From a virus (Duplodnaviria; Heunggongvirae; Uroviricota; Caudoviricetes), in IMG/VR virus record IMGVR_UViG_2585427763_000002: a stretch of 42,068 nucleotides of DNA. One strand, written 5' to 3'. Shown here piece by piece: positions 2,686 through 36,721 of the stretch. Every line of letters begins with the position of its first letter. The stretch's first letter is position 1. The notes under the pieces are model-generated. The model had not been told where the DNA came from, searched no databases, and saw only the letters and a program-made list of their open reading frames with translations. The position numbers and the translations under genes were made by a program.

Positions 2686-2790
2686 CGCAAAGTCTCCGCA
2701 ATTACACGCAAGAAAAGCCGCATTGATGCGGCAATGGTAGGTCTGGATATCTTGAGAAATGAACGGGCCTCATCGAGTGTGAGGCTGTGG

Positions 2791-3135
2791 TTAGTCCTTG
2801 CGTAACTCGCTAATTCTTCTGTAAGTCTCTGGTGCTTTGTTTCCGTGTATCTTCATTTCAGACTTCAACAGAGCAACGAGGGAATCCCATTCGGTGAGGA
2901 TGCCTTTGAATGCAGGAACGCGCTTTGCAACCTTGTCGAATGAATCTCTGATTTCTGGGATCTGCTCAACCAGTGCAACGCATCGTCGGAAATCGGCTGC
3001 GTCATGTGGAGCGCCGAAGTGATGACCATAGATATTCTTTTTCAGTCCACATGCGATTGAGGCAAGAGTTGCGCTACTGATGCCGACATCGCCAGTCGAT
3101 TGCCATTTCAAAACCTTCATAGCCAAATCTGACAT
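2791..3135 (-). CDS. Hypothetical early-left protein
   Basis: 114-aa ORF with GGAGA RBS; position equivalent to lambda ea genes; no family recognised. Confidence 0.55.
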   Translation of the reverse strand: MSDLAMKVLKWQSTGDVGISSATLASIACGLKKNIYGHHFGAPHDAADFRRCVALVEQIPEIRDSFDKVAKRVPAFKGILTEWDSLVALLKSEMKIHGNKAPETYRRISELRKD

Positions 3136-3235
3136 TTCTTGTCTCCATAAAACAAAACTCGCCGTAGCGAGTTCAGATAAAAGAAATACCCGCGAATGCG
3201 AGGATTGTTATTCACCTTTGACGGCAAGTTGCAGG

Positions 3236-3991
3236 TTAGCCATGGTTAACCTCCTGCGGCGGTTCTGGTAGCGGCATCCAGTGTGATGGAATCCACGACG
3301 CACCAGGAATTATCCAACCATCATTAGCGTCAGGATGTCCCGGTATGTAAGTCGCCCACTTCATTCGCCAGTCACCTTTCCCGTCAAACTCCCTGGCAAC
3401 AAGAACAGCTGTTTTGCTATCCGGCATTCGCTCACTACAGCTTATCCAACCATCCGGAGTTACCGGATAGTTGCCAGCCAGTCTACGCAACACAGCCTTA
3501 ACGGCCTCAATACGGTCATCATCAACTTTTTCTACAATATTGGAATTTAAATACTTCGAAGCCTTGCTATGCCAATCGCTGGTTTTAGGGTCTTGTCCAT
3601 CCATCAAACGCCAAGCTTCAGCGATTAACTCATAGCCAGTAACAGTGGCTTCCTGCGCATCACCAATCAGTTGTGTGATCTCTCTTTCAAGCATGCTTAG
3701 AGCGTTAGGCATTGGTTTTTCTTCCGGTACTACTGGAACGGGTGGAGCGGCGTAGACCTCAATAATTCCATTATCAATAGGCCATTCTCCATCCTTGAGG
3801 TAGTCACTTGTGCCGTCAACTTGCTGTTCTGCAATGTGGAATGCACCTATTGGTTTTGCTTCCAGCGATGCCAGAGCAATCCGTGCCAGTTCTTCCGCTT
3901 CTTCTGCTGGCAGTACAACGTTGCTACCCGGTCCGTATGTTTCGCGCCACTGCTTGATTGTCAGCAGTCGCCCTTTGGTAATAGTGATCAT
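3236..3991 (-). CDS. DUF551-domain phage protein
   Basis: 251 aa; C-terminal ...SCSERMPDS...SHWMPLPEPP typical of DUF551 proteins of lambdoid early regions; start ATGA-overlaps upstream stop. Confidence 0.65.
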   Translation of the reverse strand: MITITKGRLLTIKQWRETYGPGSNVVLPAEEAEELARIALASLEAKPIGAFHIAEQQVDGTSDYLKDGEWPIDNGIIEVYAAPPVPVVPEEKPMPNALSMLEREITQLIGDAQEATVTGYELIAEAWRLMDGQDPKTSDWHSKASKYLNSNIVEKVDDDRIEAVKAVLRRLAGNYPVTPDGWISCSERMPDSKTAVLVAREFDGKGDWRMKWATYIPGHPDANDGWIIPGASWIPSHWMPLPEPPQEVNHG

Positions 3992-4503
3992 GCCGCGTTT
4001 CCTTCTTTCTTATTAACAATCACACCGTCATATATTTCATTAAGGTGCCCTCTCAACTCCATGCGCCTTAATGCAGATAACATGTAATCGCATTCAACCT
4101 GCTTATTCCCAGTAAATGGCTTATCGTCAGGATTACCCCAACAGCAATTACCCCTGGGCCATCCATGTACTTTCCGTACTCTTCCGTTAACAACGTGAAG
4201 TAATCCCCAGCCGGGAGGTAAATCCTCAACTGAAATAATTTCCGGCTCACTAATAAAGAATCGCCAGTCGCCCATGCCAAGTGAGGGATTTTTACGGAAA
4301 CGCTTTTTTCTATCTGCCAACAAGTCAGCACGAGAACACTTCGCCTCTATCAGGCATGATGCTGAATTTCTGAATCCCATAGCATCTGGCTGTTCTCCGG
4401 TACTGGTTACAGCAACAAAGCGGTCATGAAAGCAAACCTTGAACCCGTTGCGCTTAAGGAACTTGTACGCAATCTGACAGAGTTCGTGGTGTGTTAACGC
4501 CAT
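3988..4503 (-). CDS. PD-(D/E)xK nuclease-like protein (family not identified)
   Basis: 171 aa from ATG at 4503 (TGATATG coupling to upstream gene); motif EQPDAMGF...(16 aa)...IEAKCSRADL fits PD...(D/E)xK. Confidence 0.5.
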   Translation of the reverse strand: MALTHHELCQIAYKFLKRNGFKVCFHDRFVAVTSTGEQPDAMGFRNSASCLIEAKCSRADLLADRKKRFRKNPSLGMGDWRFFISEPEIISVEDLPPGWGLLHVVNGRVRKVHGWPRGNCCWGNPDDKPFTGNKQVECDYMLSALRRMELRGHLNEIYDGVIVNKKEGNAA

Positions 4504-30640: not shown

Positions 30641-31990
30641 ATGGCTACGTGGCAACAGGGTATTAATTCTGGTGGTTTTCTGGCTGGAATTGGTGCGCAA
30701 AATGAGAATGCGCCAAAGGCAAGCGACATTAACGCAACGCTTGGTCTGATCCGCGAAAACAATGAACTGGCTCGATCAGGTGCAAATAACGTTGGTCTGA
30801 CCGCGTTACGTGGTCTGGCTGGAGTTGCTGATATTTATAAGCAGGAACAGCAACAGAAAGCGATTAATGCGTTCAATAAGGTTCATGCTGATGCATGGGC
30901 TTCTGGTGATCCATCGGGACTATTTAAGTTTGCCCAGGAAAATCCAGCGTTTGTTGCACAGGCACAACAGGCGTTTTCCGGTCTTAATGAGCAGCAACGC
31001 AACGATATGGGCGATTTAGCCATGAGGGCTAACGTCGCTCTTTCCCAGGGACCGGAAGCCTACAGTAAATTCATTACTGACAACAAGGACAGGTTAAATC
31101 GCGTTGGTGCTAATGCTGACTGGATGATTCAGACAGGTATCCAGAATCCAGAGCAGCTATCACACATGCTGACTACTATGTCTCTCGGTGCACTTGGGCC
31201 AGAAAAGGCGTTTGCTGTTCAGGATAAGATGGTTGGTCGCCAGCAGGAGCAGCAAAGAATTAACGAAACCATTCGCAATAATGACATGACGAATGCGAGG
31301 GCTATTAGGGGGCAGGATCTTTCCTATAAGGCTCAAATGGCAAGACTGAATCACGACAAGTATGTGTTTAAGCAGTCACAGGCGGCCCTTGAAAGAGCAG
31401 GACAACTTCAGGATATGGATGTTTTGTCTCTTAACTCACAGATAGCAGCGACGGGAATTGATCCGCTAACCGGTAAAGCTGCAACGTCAGCCAGAATGTC
31501 TCAGGCTAAGAGATGGCTTGATGGCAACAATAATTACAACAATGCGTTGATTACTGGTGAGCGAGGGATAGAGAAAATAGATTCTTTGCTTGGTAAGAAG
31601 GAGCTTGAAGGTATCGGTCGCTTCGAAGGAAGAAATATAGATGGCTTCACAAGTGCTGAAGGGCTTGCAAACCGTAATGCGATAGAAGAATTAAAGTCGG
31701 GTGCGTTTGTCCAGAACGTGCAGACTATGCGAGGTATGGGTAGCCTCTCCAATGCTGAAGGACAAAAACTGGAAAACCTTATCGCGAAACTCGATATAAC
31801 ACAGCCTGAAGAGGTCGTCAGAAAACAGTTATCTGAAATCCGATCGCAATATTCTGTATTTCAAAAGGTTGCAGCAAGGGAGGCTGAATCAATGGGATAT
31901 AGTTCATCAGGTTATGACACATATGTTAGTGAGCGAAAATCAGGAAGCGACAGCAATAAGTCCGGTTTCTCGTCTTTATGGGGTGATTAA
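30641..31990 (+). CDS. Ejection protein, P22 gp20-like
   Basis: 449 aa in conserved order after gp7-like gene. Confidence 0.65.
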
Positions 31991-34158
31991 TGGCTAAAGC
32001 ATGGAAAGATGTTATCGCTTCTCCACAGTATCAGGCGTTAACTGAAGAACAGAAAGCACAGGCTCAAGCGCAATATTTTGATGAGGTTGTTGCCCCTAAG
32101 GCTGGTGACAAATGGGCTGAAGCAAGAGATCAGTTTTATGCAGCATACCCTCCACCTCAGCAGCAGAAAGAAGAACCATCATTGATGCAACAAGCTGGTG
32201 ATTGGCTCACAGGTGGTCAAAGTGCAGGGCAAATTGCAGAACAGGCTGGTCGTGGTCTGGTAAACATACCATTTGACGTATTGCAGGGTGGCGCAAGTCT
32301 GATTAATGCAATCAGCCAGGGGCTTGGTGGCCCAAAGGTTTTGGATGATGTCTATCGTCCAGTCGATCGACCGACAGACCCTTATGCGCAAGCCGGTGAA
32401 ACAATTGGTGGGTATCTCCTGCCAATTGGCACAGCGGCAAAAGCTGCTGGAGCGCCAGCAAAGCTCGCTGGAGATATCGGTTCCGCAGGAAACATGATTG
32501 CAGGTTCTCTTGCTGATGCTGCAAATCAGGAGGGCGACTTTGCACAAAATGCTGCCATTAACGGTGGTATCAATATTGGTGCTCAGGGGATACTTTCTGG
32601 GGCTGGAAGGATCTTAACCTCTAAATCACCTCAAGTTCTTGGTGGCGGGGCAATAAATTCCGCTGCTGATGTTTCGAAAATGGCAAAGTCTGGTACAGGA
32701 AGAGAGATTATTGCCAGACAGTCAGCTAATGTGTCAGACGAAATAGCAAAAGCAGCAGATACTGCTGGAATAGATATCAACGCATTAACTCCTGGCATGA
32801 GATCAGGTAGTCGTGGTCTTGCTCAGGCGGAGGGGATTCTGGCGTCAAAGCCCGGAATTACACAGGATGCACACACCAAAGCATTCAGTGAAATAGAGTC
32901 GAAATTTAACTCAGCATTGGATGAGTTTGGGGCTGAAGCAGGAACTGCATCAGAAAAAAGTGCAGCCATAAAACAAAGGGTTTTGGCAAGTATTGATAAA
33001 ATGAAAAATTCAGAAAAGGCTGCATGGGATAGCGTCCGCTCCACGATGCCTGACGCAAAGGCCAGAATGTCAAACCTGAATGCTACAATTCAGGGTGATA
33101 TTTTGGCTGGCATGCCGCTAACTCCTGAGATGAAACAATTCGCATCTGCTTATGCTAAAACTGGTAAAAAAGGAATCACGTTTGATGCCATGAAGGCATG
33201 GCGAAGTAAACTTGCTGACGCAGAGCAGAAGTATATAAGGTCTGGTGAGGCAAATACGGCAAGGCGCATGGCGGAGCTTCGTGATGCAGCAACGGAAGAT
33301 ATGCGCATAATGGCTCAAAATGGCGGTTTTCTTGATGACTGGCAAAAAGCTAATGATCTGTCAAAGGCAAGATTTACAGCACAAGAACAGGCTGAAGCAG
33401 CGTTTGGTAGAGACCTTGCAACTGATCAGTTGGTAACTAATGGATCTAAGGCGTTACAGGGTTCAGCAAAAAGTGGAACAGGTCAGTTCCATAAAATAAT
33501 AAGCGCCCTACCTGAGTCGGAACGCGCGCCAGCAATTGCATCAATATTACAAGATGCAATGTCGCAAGGGGTACGCGGAGGTAAGTCTGAAGAGGCTGGA
33601 ATTAAGCATATCGCGACTATTCTTACCCCACAAAACGTGAAGGCAATTAGTCGATATTCTCCAGAACTTGGCAGGATTACAAGTTCATACGGAGAACTTG
33701 CACGAGCAGCAACAAAGCCACTTCGATATATTGAACAGACAGGGCGATCTATGCCAGCCATTAGCACTCTTGAGAATGGCCTTCATCCAGTTTTAGAGAG
33801 CGCATTGTCTGGCGCTTTTAGAACTACTGGCACTATCGCAGGGTTCTCTGGAGGAGGCGTTATTGGAGCAATAGCGGGTGGCGCTGCAGGTGGGGCAATT
33901 GATGCAATGGCAAAAGGAGCGATAGCGAAATTATCCGCAACTAGAAGCGGTCGTTACGCTATTGAAAAGGCTGTTCAAGAGGCAACAAAGGCAGTTAAGG
34001 TTGGGGCAAGTGATGGTGCATTAGCGGCGGCGGAACGCAGATTTATGGCAAATAAGGCCGCCGTAAAAGCAATACGCGAGGCACTAGGAAACGAAGAGTT
34101 CCAGCGTTTAGCAAGAGCTGGAATTGTGGCATCGCTAAGCGGAATGGCACAGGAGTAA
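31990..34158 (+). CDS. Ejection protein, P22 gp16-like
   Basis: 722 aa, Ala/Gly-rich; last gene of rightward virion operon before the accessory island. Confidence 0.65.
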
Positions 34159-34488
34159 TTAGTCATCCATGGATGGATTGAGCTTATCTCGTGTTGATGT
34201 GGCAATTTTCCCAACATTTTTCAACCAAGATTTTAAGAAGGATATGTCGTCCTTAATATCATGAATATCCTCATTCTTTATACGATCAACCTTATCCTCT
34301 AAGCTCTCTATAGAACGCTCAATGCTAGACAGAGAGATTTTTAAGTCCCCTTGCTCACGTTCCAGTGAGGATTTGAGAGCACAATATTCGTTTTCTAGAA
34401 TTCCTATTTTTTTTGTTAGAGAGTGCATTCGATACTCATACACCAAACCAGAAACGACTAATGCAGCCAACAGAAACCATTCAAGCAC
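34159..34488 (-). CDS. Small membrane-anchored coiled-coil protein (accessory; function unknown)
   Basis: 109 aa; N-terminal TM helix MLEWFLLAALVVSGLVYEY then heptad-like charged repeats; divergent from Panacea-like gene across AT-rich promoter region. Confidence 0.5.
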   Translation of the reverse strand: MLEWFLLAALVVSGLVYEYRMHSLTKKIGILENEYCALKSSLEREQGDLKISLSSIERSIESLEDKVDRIKNEDIHDIKDDISFLKSWLKNVGKIATSTRDKLNPSMDD

Positions 34489-34856
34489 ACCAACCTCCTT
34501 AGTTTTGCTCAGGATACCAGATGATACTTTATTGGTGGAGTGGTGTGTGAAAACGTGTCAACGACAAACCATCCACAACTTGGACGAATGATTTAGCAAA
34601 AAGTGCTATTTTTGGTGTTTGGTGTCATAGAAAAGTGAATAGCTCACTTTTCAACATTGCATGAAACTTGCAGGAAATGTGACATTACCTTATAGGTAAC
34701 TTCGGCGAAAATGCAGTAAATGTGAAACGTAATGGTTTAAACATGTCGCTAAAGTGGTTGTAAGTTAGCCTCCGAAGGATTGCTGATAGCTTTGTTATAG
34801 TATTAAATGACATTTGACATAGTTGGATACTTAGCTGTGGCTATCAAGATGGAGGT

Positions 34857-35306
34857 GTGTTCATGCTTACTTGTTTTGATGTCGCCGACTACTTCCTGTC
34901 GCGGTGTGACGAGGATAGCGGTGACGCAATCTCTAATTTAAAATTACAAAAGCTTGTTTACTATGCTCAGGGTTTTTCATTGGCGTTGCTTGGCGAGCCT
35001 CTTTTTCAGAATAAGATGGAAGCTTGGATGCATGGCCCTGTTGTCCCTGAGCTTTATCACCGTTATAAACAATATGGTAATGGTGCTATCCCTTCTCCAG
35101 AGTCTTTTGATGCTGAAAAATTCAGCGAAGAACAGTTAGAGCTATTAGAAGAAGTCTGGGATGTTTTTGGGCAATTTTCTGCCTGGAAACTGAGGAACAT
35201 GACACACGAAGAGTCACCATGGAGATCAAACTATATTGAGGGTGTTGGTGGTTCTGAAATTAGTTCTAAGGAGATGGCAGAGTACTTTGCAACTCGGATT
35301 AACTAA
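34857..35306 (+). CDS. Panacea (DUF4065; SocA/GepA-type) domain protein, candidate antitoxin
   Basis: 149 aa; ISNLKLQKLVYYAQGFSLALLGEPLFQNKMEAWMHGPVVPELY matches the Panacea consensus as recalled. Confidence 0.6.
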   Translation: MFMLTCFDVADYFLSRCDEDSGDAISNLKLQKLVYYAQGFSLALLGEPLFQNKMEAWMHGPVVPELYHRYKQYGNGAIPSPESFDAEKFSEEQLELLEEVWDVFGQFSAWKLRNMTHEESPWRSNYIEGVGGSEISSKEMAEYFATRIN

Positions 35307-35310
35307 CGAG

Positions 35311-35730
35311 ATGGCAAGAAAATCTAAAAGGATTATCCCCCCTGCTGAATCTACAGGTAAGTTAAAGTTAGGGCCGCAGTCAGGGGGGAATTCAGATCAA
35401 AAGAAACCGAAATTTTCATTCTGTTACATCCAAAGCTCTCACTGCATAACGAAATGCCAAAAAGATGAGAAAGCTGGCTTAGCTGATAAATTATACAGAT
35501 TAAGTCAACTAACATGGGCAGATATTAAGCAGCAAGGTAGGCATAAGCTTGGATTTGAGAAGATTGCAAGGGGTGCAATTAAAGCAGGTATCCCCAGTCA
35601 TATAACGGAAGACGTAGATCATTTCTTGGCTTTTAGATTTGATGATTTGAAAGCCATGGTTGGTTATCGTCTTGGATCGACATTTTTTGTTATATGGCTT
35701 GATAGAGAGTTCAACCTATACAAGCACTAA
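35311..35730 (+). CDS. Unknown protein coupled to Panacea-like gene (candidate toxin/effector)
   Basis: 139 aa from ATG 35311, 4 nt after upstream stop; basic N-terminus; no recognised family. Confidence 0.5.
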   Translation: MARKSKRIIPPAESTGKLKLGPQSGGNSDQKKPKFSFCYIQSSHCITKCQKDEKAGLADKLYRLSQLTWADIKQQGRHKLGFEKIARGAIKAGIPSHITEDVDHFLAFRFDDLKAMVGYRLGSTFFVIWLDREFNLYKH

Positions 35731-35731
35731 T

Positions 35732-35757
35732 AAAACCCCCCGTCAGGTGGGTTTTTT
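35732..35757. terminator. Putative bidirectional terminator between convergent genes
   Basis: AAAACCC-(10 nt loop)-GGGTTTT with T-run, between 35730 (+ gene end) and 35743 (- gene end). Confidence 0.4.
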
Positions 35758-35994
35758 GTACAAATCCTTCAGCGTATCAAACACCATCTTCCTAACAAGT
35801 TCGGACTGCTCATCAGCGATGCGTTCTGCATCGTCTCGATAGCCTGCAATTGGTGATGGTTTTGATAGCGCATCCTGAACGATTTGTAATAACTCTGAGT
35901 TCATTGACCTTCCGTTAGCCTCTGCTCTTAATTTCAATTTTTCTCTTACTTCCAAAGGCATACGGAAGTTAAAGTGCGGATCGTCTCTAGCCAT
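35743..35994 (-). CDS. mnt: Mnt repressor (Arc/MetJ ribbon-helix-helix), P22 immI type
   Basis: 83 aa, MARDDPHFNFRMPLEVREKLKLRAEANGRSMNSELLQIVQDALSKPSP... recalled as near-identical to P22 Mnt. Confidence 0.8.
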   Translation of the reverse strand: MARDDPHFNFRMPLEVREKLKLRAEANGRSMNSELLQIVQDALSKPSPIAGYRDDAERIADEQSELVRKMVFDTLKDLYKKPT

Positions 35995-36017
35995 GCCATC
36001 ACTCCAAGTTAGTATCT

Positions 36018-36281
36018 CTAACTTTCGTCTTTATTGTTGCTATACATGCATTTCAACTTCTCAACATCATGTTCAAGATCTATCAATCGTGATGCTATAG
36101 TTGCAAGGTCTAGTGCTTGAATGTGTTTATTTTTTTCGGTCCATGCTTCAAGTGCCGCGACCATCTCAGCATTTAATGAACGAGAATTAGCCTCAGCCAG
36201 TTCAATAAGACGTTCCTTTATCTCTACAGGAAGCCTCAGATTCACTTGAGGGTTTTTGTACTTACGATCAGACATCGGCAC
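36018..36281 (-). CDS. Second ribbon-helix-helix (Arc/Mnt-like) protein
   Basis: 87 aa; PQVNLRLPVEIKERLIELAEANSRSLNAEMVAALEA RHH signature plus C-terminal extension. Confidence 0.6.
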   Translation of the reverse strand: MPMSDRKYKNPQVNLRLPVEIKERLIELAEANSRSLNAEMVAALEAWTEKNKHIQALDLATIASRLIDLEHDVEKLKCMYSNNKDES

Positions 36282-36380
36282 ATCCTGAATAATTTTTTAC
36301 CACAGGATATGTAGGTATCTATTGACTATCAATGCGTACCTAAATACTATGTATGCGTACCACATACAACGGAGGATGCA
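36282..36380. promoter_or_regulatory. Divergent immI-like promoter/operator region
   Basis: AT-rich interval with direct repeats ATGCGTACC (x2) between leftward RHH genes and rightward arc-like gene. Confidence 0.45.
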
Positions 36381-36521
36381 ATGAAGGTAAAAACACTGCG
36401 TATGCCAGAGAAGTTAGAAAAAATCCTTGAAGAGAAAGCAAAGGAAGAGTGTCGCTCATTTAGTGCAGAAGTAATTAAACGGGTGATGGACAGCCTGAAG
36501 AGAGAGGGGATAACGGTATGA
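36381..36521 (+). CDS. Arc-like ribbon-helix-helix repressor
   Basis: 46-aa ORF (MKVKTLRMPEKLEKILEEKAKEECRSFSAEVIKRVMDSLKREGITV) after GGAGGA; below ORF-track cutoff. Confidence 0.5.
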   Translation: MKVKTLRMPEKLEKILEEKAKEECRSFSAEVIKRVMDSLKREGITV

Positions 36522-36721
36522 GTAAAGAATGTTGTTTCTGCGGCATTAGCGAATCAGACGCTGATCAAACATACATTTACTCTAAAGAAACAGGTCGGAT
36601 GCTGTGTAGTGACTGCGTGTTGGACATCATAAGATACAAGCATCTTGGATGTTCTGCCAGCATTAGCAATATAGGTGAAGTATATGAAGGGAAAGATATA
36701 ACTGATAGAGCAGAAAGTTGA
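36518..36721 (+). CDS. Small zinc-ribbon-like protein
   Basis: 67 aa with CxxC...CxxC pattern (CCFCG ... CSDC); ATGA-coupled to arc-like stop. Confidence 0.45.
   Translation: MSKECCFCGISESDADQTYIYSKETGRMLCSDCVLDIIRYKHLGCSASISNIGEVYEGKDITDRAES

Follow-up and report, generated by a model that had tools for sequence, protein, structure and literature searches.

A Panacea protein and its RelE-like partner of PanT cluster T1 as a cargo cassette in a P22-like prophage of Escherichia coli

The PanA-B cassette

The DNA described here is IMG/VR virus record IMGVR_UViG_2585427763_000002, a stretch of 42,068 nucleotides (nt) that is called the window in the following. It represents a P22-like prophage of Escherichia coli with an HK620-like backbone, a Lederbergvirus. 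Within the window, two adjacent genes are found on the plus strand. The first encodes a stand-alone Panacea protein (PanA, 34863-35306) and the second, here called B (35311-35730), a protein of 139 amino acids (aa) that belongs to PanT cluster T1. Together with a leader, a probable promoter and a terminator, panA and this panT gene constitute a self-contained prophage cargo cassette.

The mechanically defined open reading frame (ORF) of panA (34857-35306, plus strand) starts at a GTG, comprises 149 aa and contains the motif NLKLQKLVYYAQGFSLALLGEPLF...EAWMHGPVVPELY. A preliminary description, made from the sequence alone, had recognized a Panacea/DUF4065 domain here, which is confirmed by the Pfam family PF13274 SocA_Panacea (E 8.1e-25, 88.4 bits at a cutoff of 25.7, residues 30-122); phrog_1281 is matched as well (E 7e-61). 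The start codon is probably ATG 34863 rather than GTG 34857, which results in a protein of 147 aa. A GGAGG sequence at 34851-34855 is located 7 nt upstream of this ATG, and RefSeq contains the 147-aa form under the name "Panacea domain-containing protein". PanA is acidic (isoelectric point, pI, 4.6), and its exact sequence is present on 974 contigs. A sequence search for a solved relative of PanA returned none.

The stop codon TAA of panA (35304-35306) is followed after a gap of 4 nt by the ATG of B at 35311, and the pair ends in a hairpin, exactly as the preliminary description had it. B closes at 35730 with tandem TAA TAA stop codons and has no good Shine-Dalgarno sequence of its own; panA and B are translationally coupled. 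Directly behind B an intrinsic terminator is located (approximately 35732-35757), which consists of a G+C-rich hairpin and a U-tract with A- and T-runs on either side (minimum free energy -10.9 kcal/mol, z -1.9). The same hairpin is annotated as a rho-independent terminator in the record of phage Emek. It is common to two convergent units, PanA-B and mnt, and the stop codon of mnt lies inside the hairpin. Since both neighbours are encoded on the opposite strand and the terminator directly follows B, the operon comprises at most three genes. A scan of positions 34000-36600 against Rfam gave nothing except a sub-threshold match to the Salmonella small RNA STnc420 at the terminator (35724-35779, minus strand, 21 bits at a gathering threshold of 70, E 0.62); this candidate was rejected and is probably just the terminator hairpin.

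On its left side, the cassette is preceded by a gene-16-like DNA transfer gene (31990-34158) and an hkcB-like gene (34159-34488, minus strand). On its right side, it is followed by mnt (35743-35994, minus strand), whose product contains Arc and Repressor_Mnt domains, and beyond Mnt by more Arc-family genes, Ant and the tailspike. These flanks correspond to the sieA/hkc cargo slot of P22-like phages, in which the pair had been placed from the beginning. The region had further been called an AT-rich island; it is AT-rich, but only modestly so, the cassette having a G+C content of 0.404, the window as a whole 0.470 and the structural genes 0.483.

Previous descriptions of the pair

Positions 34486-35757 of the window are 99.9% identical to Salmonella phage vB_SemP_Emek, with the terminator as the right end of the shared block, and 99.2% identical to Escherichia phage phiv205-1. 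At an identity of at least 99%, 48 complete genomes of E. coli contain this block too; the two products appear there in RefSeq as "Panacea domain-containing protein" and "hypothetical protein". The exact B sequence was found on 331 contigs. B is 100% identical to the Emek ORF over 139 aa and falls into the same 90% cluster as YP_006560566.1, which places it in PanT cluster T1.

The PanA-B pair is already known and was catalogued, assigned to a fold class and assayed in 2022. In the tables of Kurata et al. (2022; PMC8832971), the Emek pair is entered with PanA YP_006560565.1 ("noNTD") and PanT YP_006560566.1 (T1), in the order A before T, with a gap of -62, the label "mRNase" and the laboratory result "not toxic". 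For a second T1 pair from E. coli MOD1 (WP_077635758.1 with WP_089622957.1, gap -20) the result was also "not toxic"; that WP_077635758.1 is an allele of the type seen in the window could not be confirmed. Both T1 PanTs were tested for toxicity from pBAD33 in E. coli (PMC8832971). As neither was toxic, rescue by PanA was not assayed, and on functional grounds the pair has so far not qualified as a toxin-antitoxin (TA) system in the published tests (PMC8832971). T1 accounts for approximately 217 of the 1,268 predicted PanAT pairs (PMC8832971) and appears to be the largest PanT cluster.

By definition, a PanAT pair consists of a Panacea gene and a partner within 100 nt or less on the same strand, which is kept in at least two species and lies in an operon of at most three genes. 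In sequence and architecture the pair is of this kind, with its Panacea domain, the gap of 4 nt, the short operon and a conserved pairing. The Emek pair is not listed in the supplements of NetFlax 2023, and two modularity-based preprints on the discovery of defence systems mention neither Panacea nor NsnC, the Menshen effector discussed below.

Since the pair is annotated in RefSeq and has been listed as well as assayed in the Panacea paper, finding it again adds little. The remaining value lies in a caveat about the start codon of B, in the link to the Menshen system and in the conserved leader.

Conservation of the pairing

For distant homologues of B (43-55% identity), a Panacea gene encoding 143-147 aa is located directly upstream in six of six genomic contexts. 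These contexts are from Acidobacteria, a metagenome contig, Pantoea, a cyanobacterium, where hsdR, a gene of type I restriction, is the neighbour, a P2-like prophage of Aeromonas, where tail gene S and baseplate gene V flank the pair, and Solidesulfovibrio, where the pair adjoins a P22-type portal gene. Since the pairing recurs across phyla, a chance adjacency of panA and B was rejected. Here, the preliminary description of a tightly coupled, TA-like pair is supported both by the narrow gap and by the distribution of the two genes.

A scan of IMG/VR yielded 62 viral loci with B, which were analysed for PanA by means of ORFs and hidden Markov models. In 57 of these, PanA is encoded immediately upstream of B and on its strand, and in one more it is divergently oriented (IMGVR_UViG_3300008121_000004, in the following L065). 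Three of the other four loci contain truncated or frameshifted remnants of B. The fourth (IMGVR_UViG_2639762749_000019, 2688-3423, in the following L027) encodes an intact B homologue of 143 aa without a Panacea core, and the ORF upstream of it is a chimera that joins the N-terminus of lambda tail assembly protein I to the final ~23 residues of PanA (IEGVGYQVISHNELKDYFLTRIN). The pairing of PanA and B is obligate. Over 16 pairs the identity of PanA (48-69%) follows that of B (37-55%), and PanA is the better conserved partner in every one of them.

Both exceptional loci contain further genes. In L027, a protein with a Tad2-like domain (Thoeris anti-defence) is encoded just downstream of B at 3744-4385. 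In L065 (2462-4386), two Panacea modules are situated side by side. The first one is the divergent PanA adjoining the B homologue. The second one consists of a PanA of 157 aa followed by a protein of 147 aa that differs from B but has a comparable basic tail, a RelE-like C-terminal pattern and no Pfam match.

The B protein

In the preliminary description, B was not assigned to any family and was considered as a possible new effector. This has to be revised, as B belongs to PHROG 8366 (phrog_8366, E 5e-66) and to PanT cluster T1, has a RelE-like fold and is homologous to NsnC. No Pfam family was matched at E 1 or better. The close homologues (n=180) have a length of 134-146 aa. A search of 1.84 billion representatives with the family profile yielded 1,514 clusters (50% identity), and the 150 best of these are without exception stand-alone proteins of 94-158 aa.

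B is basic with a pI of 9.7. In the alignment of the family, M1 is invariant, and so are P33, F35, W69, G81, E83, P95, A107, R109, V117, G118, W129, D131, L136, Y137 and H139; H78, K84, R120 and K54 are among the nearly invariant residues. The set of His, Arg, Glu, Tyr and His together with the C-terminal Y-x-H is as found in the members of the RelE type that are ribonucleases (RNases).

An AlphaFold model of B calculated from the family alignment (predicted local distance difference test, pLDDT, 84; predicted template modelling score, pTM, 0.72) is confident and begins with a disordered basic tail (residues 1-33, pLDDT below 55), after which come one strand, a pair of helices and a sheet of three to four strands. 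This agrees with the RelE-type fold, in which an antiparallel sheet is packed against two helices. In the structural ranking, RelE, HigB, YoeB and YafQ are placed above ParE. A fold search in BFVD gave matches that were either unnamed or weak, and none of the PDB sequences matched the family profile at E 10 or better.

On the sequence level, B matches the PADLOC model of NsnC (E 4e-6) at profile positions 178-279 of 284. NsnC was matched by all 30 aligned B homologues (best E 1.9e-10), and the NCBIfam family MAG6450_fam by 28 of the 30. NsnC is the effector of Menshen and possesses a C-terminal YafQ-like BECR RNase domain called "PB-BECR1" with an H-R-H triad (PMC12065111). We regard B as a divergent putative endoribonuclease with a RelE/BECR fold. 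That the T1 toxin domain is the RNase-type domain of a Menshen effector joins two bodies of literature and supports the view of B as an immune effector.

The leader and the exchange of alleles

The non-coding leader of the cassette comprises 374 nt (34489-34862, plus strand). It is 94-100% identical in phage E212 and in the viral loci L035-L045 and L048/49. At the same loci, nucleotide identity is 63-75% for panA and 43-60% for panT, and the left flank is unrelated. The identity falls sharply within the first codons of panA, and on the protein level it amounts to ~69% for PanA and ~51% for B behind the conserved leader. The full-length leader is present in 82 E. coli genomes, which is approximately the number harboring the PanA-B cassette, and it is absent from HK620.

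Thus, at least two diverged PanA-B alleles are found behind one conserved leader. A conserved leader in front of diverged genes indicates that PanA-B alleles are exchanged behind one leader in one prophage slot, and both the mobility of the cassette and the turnover of its alleles are established. Such swapping of cargo behind a leader of 94-100% identity is typical of prophage defence cargo, and it provides a handle for studies on regulation.

The diverged leaders of the loci L032 and L034 retain three blocks only. These are a palindrome TAGCA-N5-TGCTA (~34595-34609), a candidate promoter TTGCTG ... TATTAAAT (34780-34808) and a further palindrome, TAGC-TGTG-GCTA (TAGC-N4-GCTA, 34832-34843), situated immediately 5' of the Shine-Dalgarno sequence. 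The candidate promoter is composed of a candidate -35 element TTGCTG (34780-34785) and a candidate -10 element TATTAA(AT) (34801-34808), with an extended TGn in three of five sequences. It is weak, matching 7 of 12 consensus positions, and its conservation suggests that the leader promoter may be located at 34780-34808. A structured leader RNA at 34812-34875 was rejected, since the 5' untranslated region folds no better than shuffled sequence.

A part of the leader also occurs by itself. In a P22-like prophage of E. coli O139:H1 P15-25 (NZ_CP080233.1; locus L076, 3501-3729) only the first 229 nt are present, at 99% identity and without PanA-B genes. This suggests that either the cassette was lost here or the leader's left portion belongs to the backbone as a boundary sequence.

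The start codon of B and the published toxicity tests

The start of B is inconsistent in the public records, where forms of 139, 147, 160 or 161 aa are found. The longer forms overlap panA (region 35236-35730). In Emek, B is annotated as orf161 with a start 62 nt inside panA, and accordingly YP_006560566.1 comprises 161 aa; the published entry for Emek gives a B of 161 aa and a PanA of 149 aa. An overlap of 20 nt, as listed for the E. coli MOD1 pair, fits a start at TTG 35287 with a product of 147 aa, and 147-aa forms are abundant in the databases. Homologues across phyla start at the Met equivalent to ATG 35311, and the start of the B gene in distant homologues ranges from an overlap of 8 nt with panA to 35 nt beyond its stop codon. 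RefSeq now contains the 139-aa form of B.

According to the methods of Kurata et al., ORFs were synthesised as deposited, preceded by a strong Shine-Dalgarno sequence, and the start of one PanA only was corrected (PMC8832971). As the deposited ORFs were synthesised unchanged, the Emek test protein had 22 non-native residues at its N-terminus, and the E. coli T1 test protein probably had 8. The native N-terminus of B is itself a disordered tail, which bears on the effect that such extensions could have.

The non-toxicity of the extended forms is established. The preliminary description had regarded the pair as a candidate TA module, and toxicity of the downstream gene on its own is in effect contradicted by the results for the Emek protein, which is identical to B, and for the E. 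coli T1 PanT; these results, however, were obtained with extended ORFs (in the case of E. coli, probably so). Since one of the published negatives, and probably both, come from extended ORFs, they do not settle the functional status of T1, apparently the commonest PanT class.

Proposed function and alternative explanations

The explanation that we favour is a latent RNase, which is controlled by PanA and carried as prophage cargo. Taken as a whole, we would give this statement an even chance, and the part of it that concerns the identity of the components is very probably correct. In the lysogen, PanA and B would be joined in a complex, with PanA holding or regulating the RNase by direct contact, and B would be latent rather than constitutively lethal. 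A cue would switch the RNase on, which may be the infection by another phage or the loss or turnover of PanA. Active B would then cut RNA, either mRNA on the ribosome or tRNA/rRNA, leading to translation arrest, and the prophage would gain from this by an abortive-infection-type defence or by self-maintenance.

Several observations point in this direction. The conserved residues of B look catalytic, and its homology is to the domain of a validated defence effector. PanA and B are oppositely charged (pI 4.6 versus 9.7) and obligately paired, and their identities vary together. The context resembles that of cargo or defence genes, as seen from the sieA/hkc slot, the P2-like tail site, the neighbouring hsdR gene and the exchange of alleles. 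Latency would fit with the non-toxic extended forms of B and with the intact B of L027 that lacks a Panacea core. Furthermore, a sensor role has been proposed for Panacea, and stand-alone Panacea binds toxins directly (Ernits et al., 2023; PMC10440598).

On the other side, a number of points speak against a PanA-controlled latent RNase. The structural matches of B are each weak, with Foldseek E values of 0.09 or worse, and no sequence match to a solved RelE-family structure or to a Pfam RelE/ParE family was obtained. An hhalign comparison of the B family with YafQ of E. coli resulted in a probability of 0.7% and no usable alignment; since this alignment is not meaningful, catalytic residues were not transferred from YafQ. 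H78, R109 and H139 may represent the catalytic set, as judged from conservation. Neither a promoter scan nor a relaxed scan upstream of panA revealed a sigma-70 site with at least 9 of 12 positions, and in the absence of a convincing promoter of this type, expression in the lysogen is only presumed. For none of the T1 pairs is there experimental evidence of toxicity, of RNase activity, of a complex or of defence against phages, and the only T1 tests were reported as "not toxic" (PMC8832971). In the literature no paper was found in which a T1 pair was tested against phages, and PADLOC contains no defence-system model for the PanA-B pair.

One alternative is a classical type II TA system, in which native B, a RelE-type mRNase, would be toxic at all times unless neutralised by a labile PanA, and the "not toxic" results would be artefacts of misannotated start codons. 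Such an artefact is conceivable, as ORFs were synthesised as deposited with one PanA start corrected only, the Emek ORF of 161 aa starting 62 nt inside panA and the E. coli ORF overlapping panA by 20 nt, in agreement with the 147-aa form from TTG 35287, whereas in homologues and in RefSeq the start is the counterpart of ATG 35311. A leading antitoxin gene, coupled genes and this distribution of charges are all classical, and B is truncated or frameshifted in three viral loci without PanA, as expected if an unguarded toxin is counter-selected. Yet an addition of 8 residues to a disordered tail of 33 residues is no obvious killer of activity, and both constructs were non-toxic. In addition, B has stayed intact in L027 although the Panacea core is missing, and PanA ("noNTD") has no DNA-binding domain for classical autoregulation. 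A classical TA system is considered unlikely. The same low probability is given to a module that is not a toxin at all but serves the phage in RNA processing, regulation or against host defence, with B as a specific RNA-binding protein or an RNase of narrow specificity. The two negative tests in E. coli are in line with this, transposon insertions in MAG6450 of M. agalactiae, which gives the related NCBIfam family its name, are viable, the family is very large and uniform in size (the 1,514 clusters mentioned above), and the pair is not found in defence catalogues. Nevertheless, the pair is also found at chromosomal sites that are not prophages, its domain is the effector of the validated defence system Menshen, and the other partners of Panacea are mostly proven toxins.

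That B is a ParE-like gyrase poison instead of an RNase is highly improbable, as RelE, HigB, YoeB and YafQ rank higher structurally, the conserved His, Arg, Glu and Tyr with the C-terminal Y-x-H are as in the RNase members, and the sequence homology is to the RNase-type domain of NsnC. Less likely than not is the specific idea that T1, instead of a classical TA class, is a two-component immune module in which the RNase would be inert alone and switched on by PanA as the sensor after a phage cue. If this was true, the published negative toxicity tests would be the expected outcome and not failures, and the fast turnover of PanA-B alleles behind a near-invariant leader in P22-like prophages would reflect an arms race.

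Comparison with known systems

The closest relative is the PanAT pair of Emek, which agrees in cassette DNA (99.9%), in architecture and in terminator and occupies the same slot of its genome. Differences are confined to the flanking genes, where the window has an hkcB-like gene and a backbone like that of HK620. Compared to RelBE, YefM-YoeB, DinJ-YafQ and HigBA, B shows no sequence match to the Pfam RelE, ParE, HigB or YoeB families or to solved structures and contains an extra basic N-terminal tail of 33 residues. Moreover, in contrast to these systems, the partner is a Panacea domain and not an antitoxin of the ribbon-helix-helix, Phd or helix-turn-helix DNA-binding type, and the published assays recorded B as "not toxic".

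With Menshen NsnC, B shares an RNase-type domain that is homologous by sequence as well as a conserved set of the His-Arg-His type. However, the match of B is confined to the model's C-terminal third, the N-terminal inactive-PIN domain is absent from B, and no gene for NsnA (ParB-DUF262) or NsnB (ABC ATPase) is located nearby; the regulator here would be PanA and not an ATPase. Since the inactive-PIN domain is missing and the neighbours are PanA, the hkcB-like gene and mnt, B was rejected as a component of a Menshen system.

SocAB from Caulobacter, a type VI TA system, also contains a Panacea domain in its first gene. However, PanA reaches 70.4 bits against NCBIfam SocA_antitoxin, below the cutoff of 190, and is thus no SocA equivalog; as B is RelE-like, an identity of B with SocB was rejected. 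Other PanAs bind directly and do not act as ClpXP adaptors (PMC8832971). Among the structural matches of B is Cami1, a CARF-RelE protein of type III CRISPR systems, which likewise is a latent RelE-fold RNase switched by a sensor in an immune context. In Cami1, a single protein combines the sensor with the effector, cA4 serves as the signal, and there is no sequence kinship to PanA. Finally, sieA of P22 and the hkc genes of HK620 occupy the same cargo slot between gene 16 and mnt, but no homology exists; PanA and B are soluble proteins, in contrast to SieA, an exclusion protein of the membrane.

Neighbouring genes

The hkcB-like gene that adjoins the cassette on the left encodes a protein of 109 aa, which belongs to phrog_5962 and has an N-terminal hydrophobic segment and a long coiled coil. 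In Emek, the left neighbour is instead a gene like gene 38 of Sf6. Weak matches of the hkcB-like protein to coiled-coil proteins and to DpdH were dismissed as noise.

To the right, the immI region (35743-36721) contains three genes of the Arc/Mnt ribbon-helix-helix type. Besides mnt, these are an Arc-family gene of 87 aa (36018-36281, minus strand) and an Arc-like gene of 46 aa (36381-36521, plus strand). The latter overlaps by 4 nt a Cys-rich ORF of 67 aa, unannotated in RefSeq, at 36518-36721.

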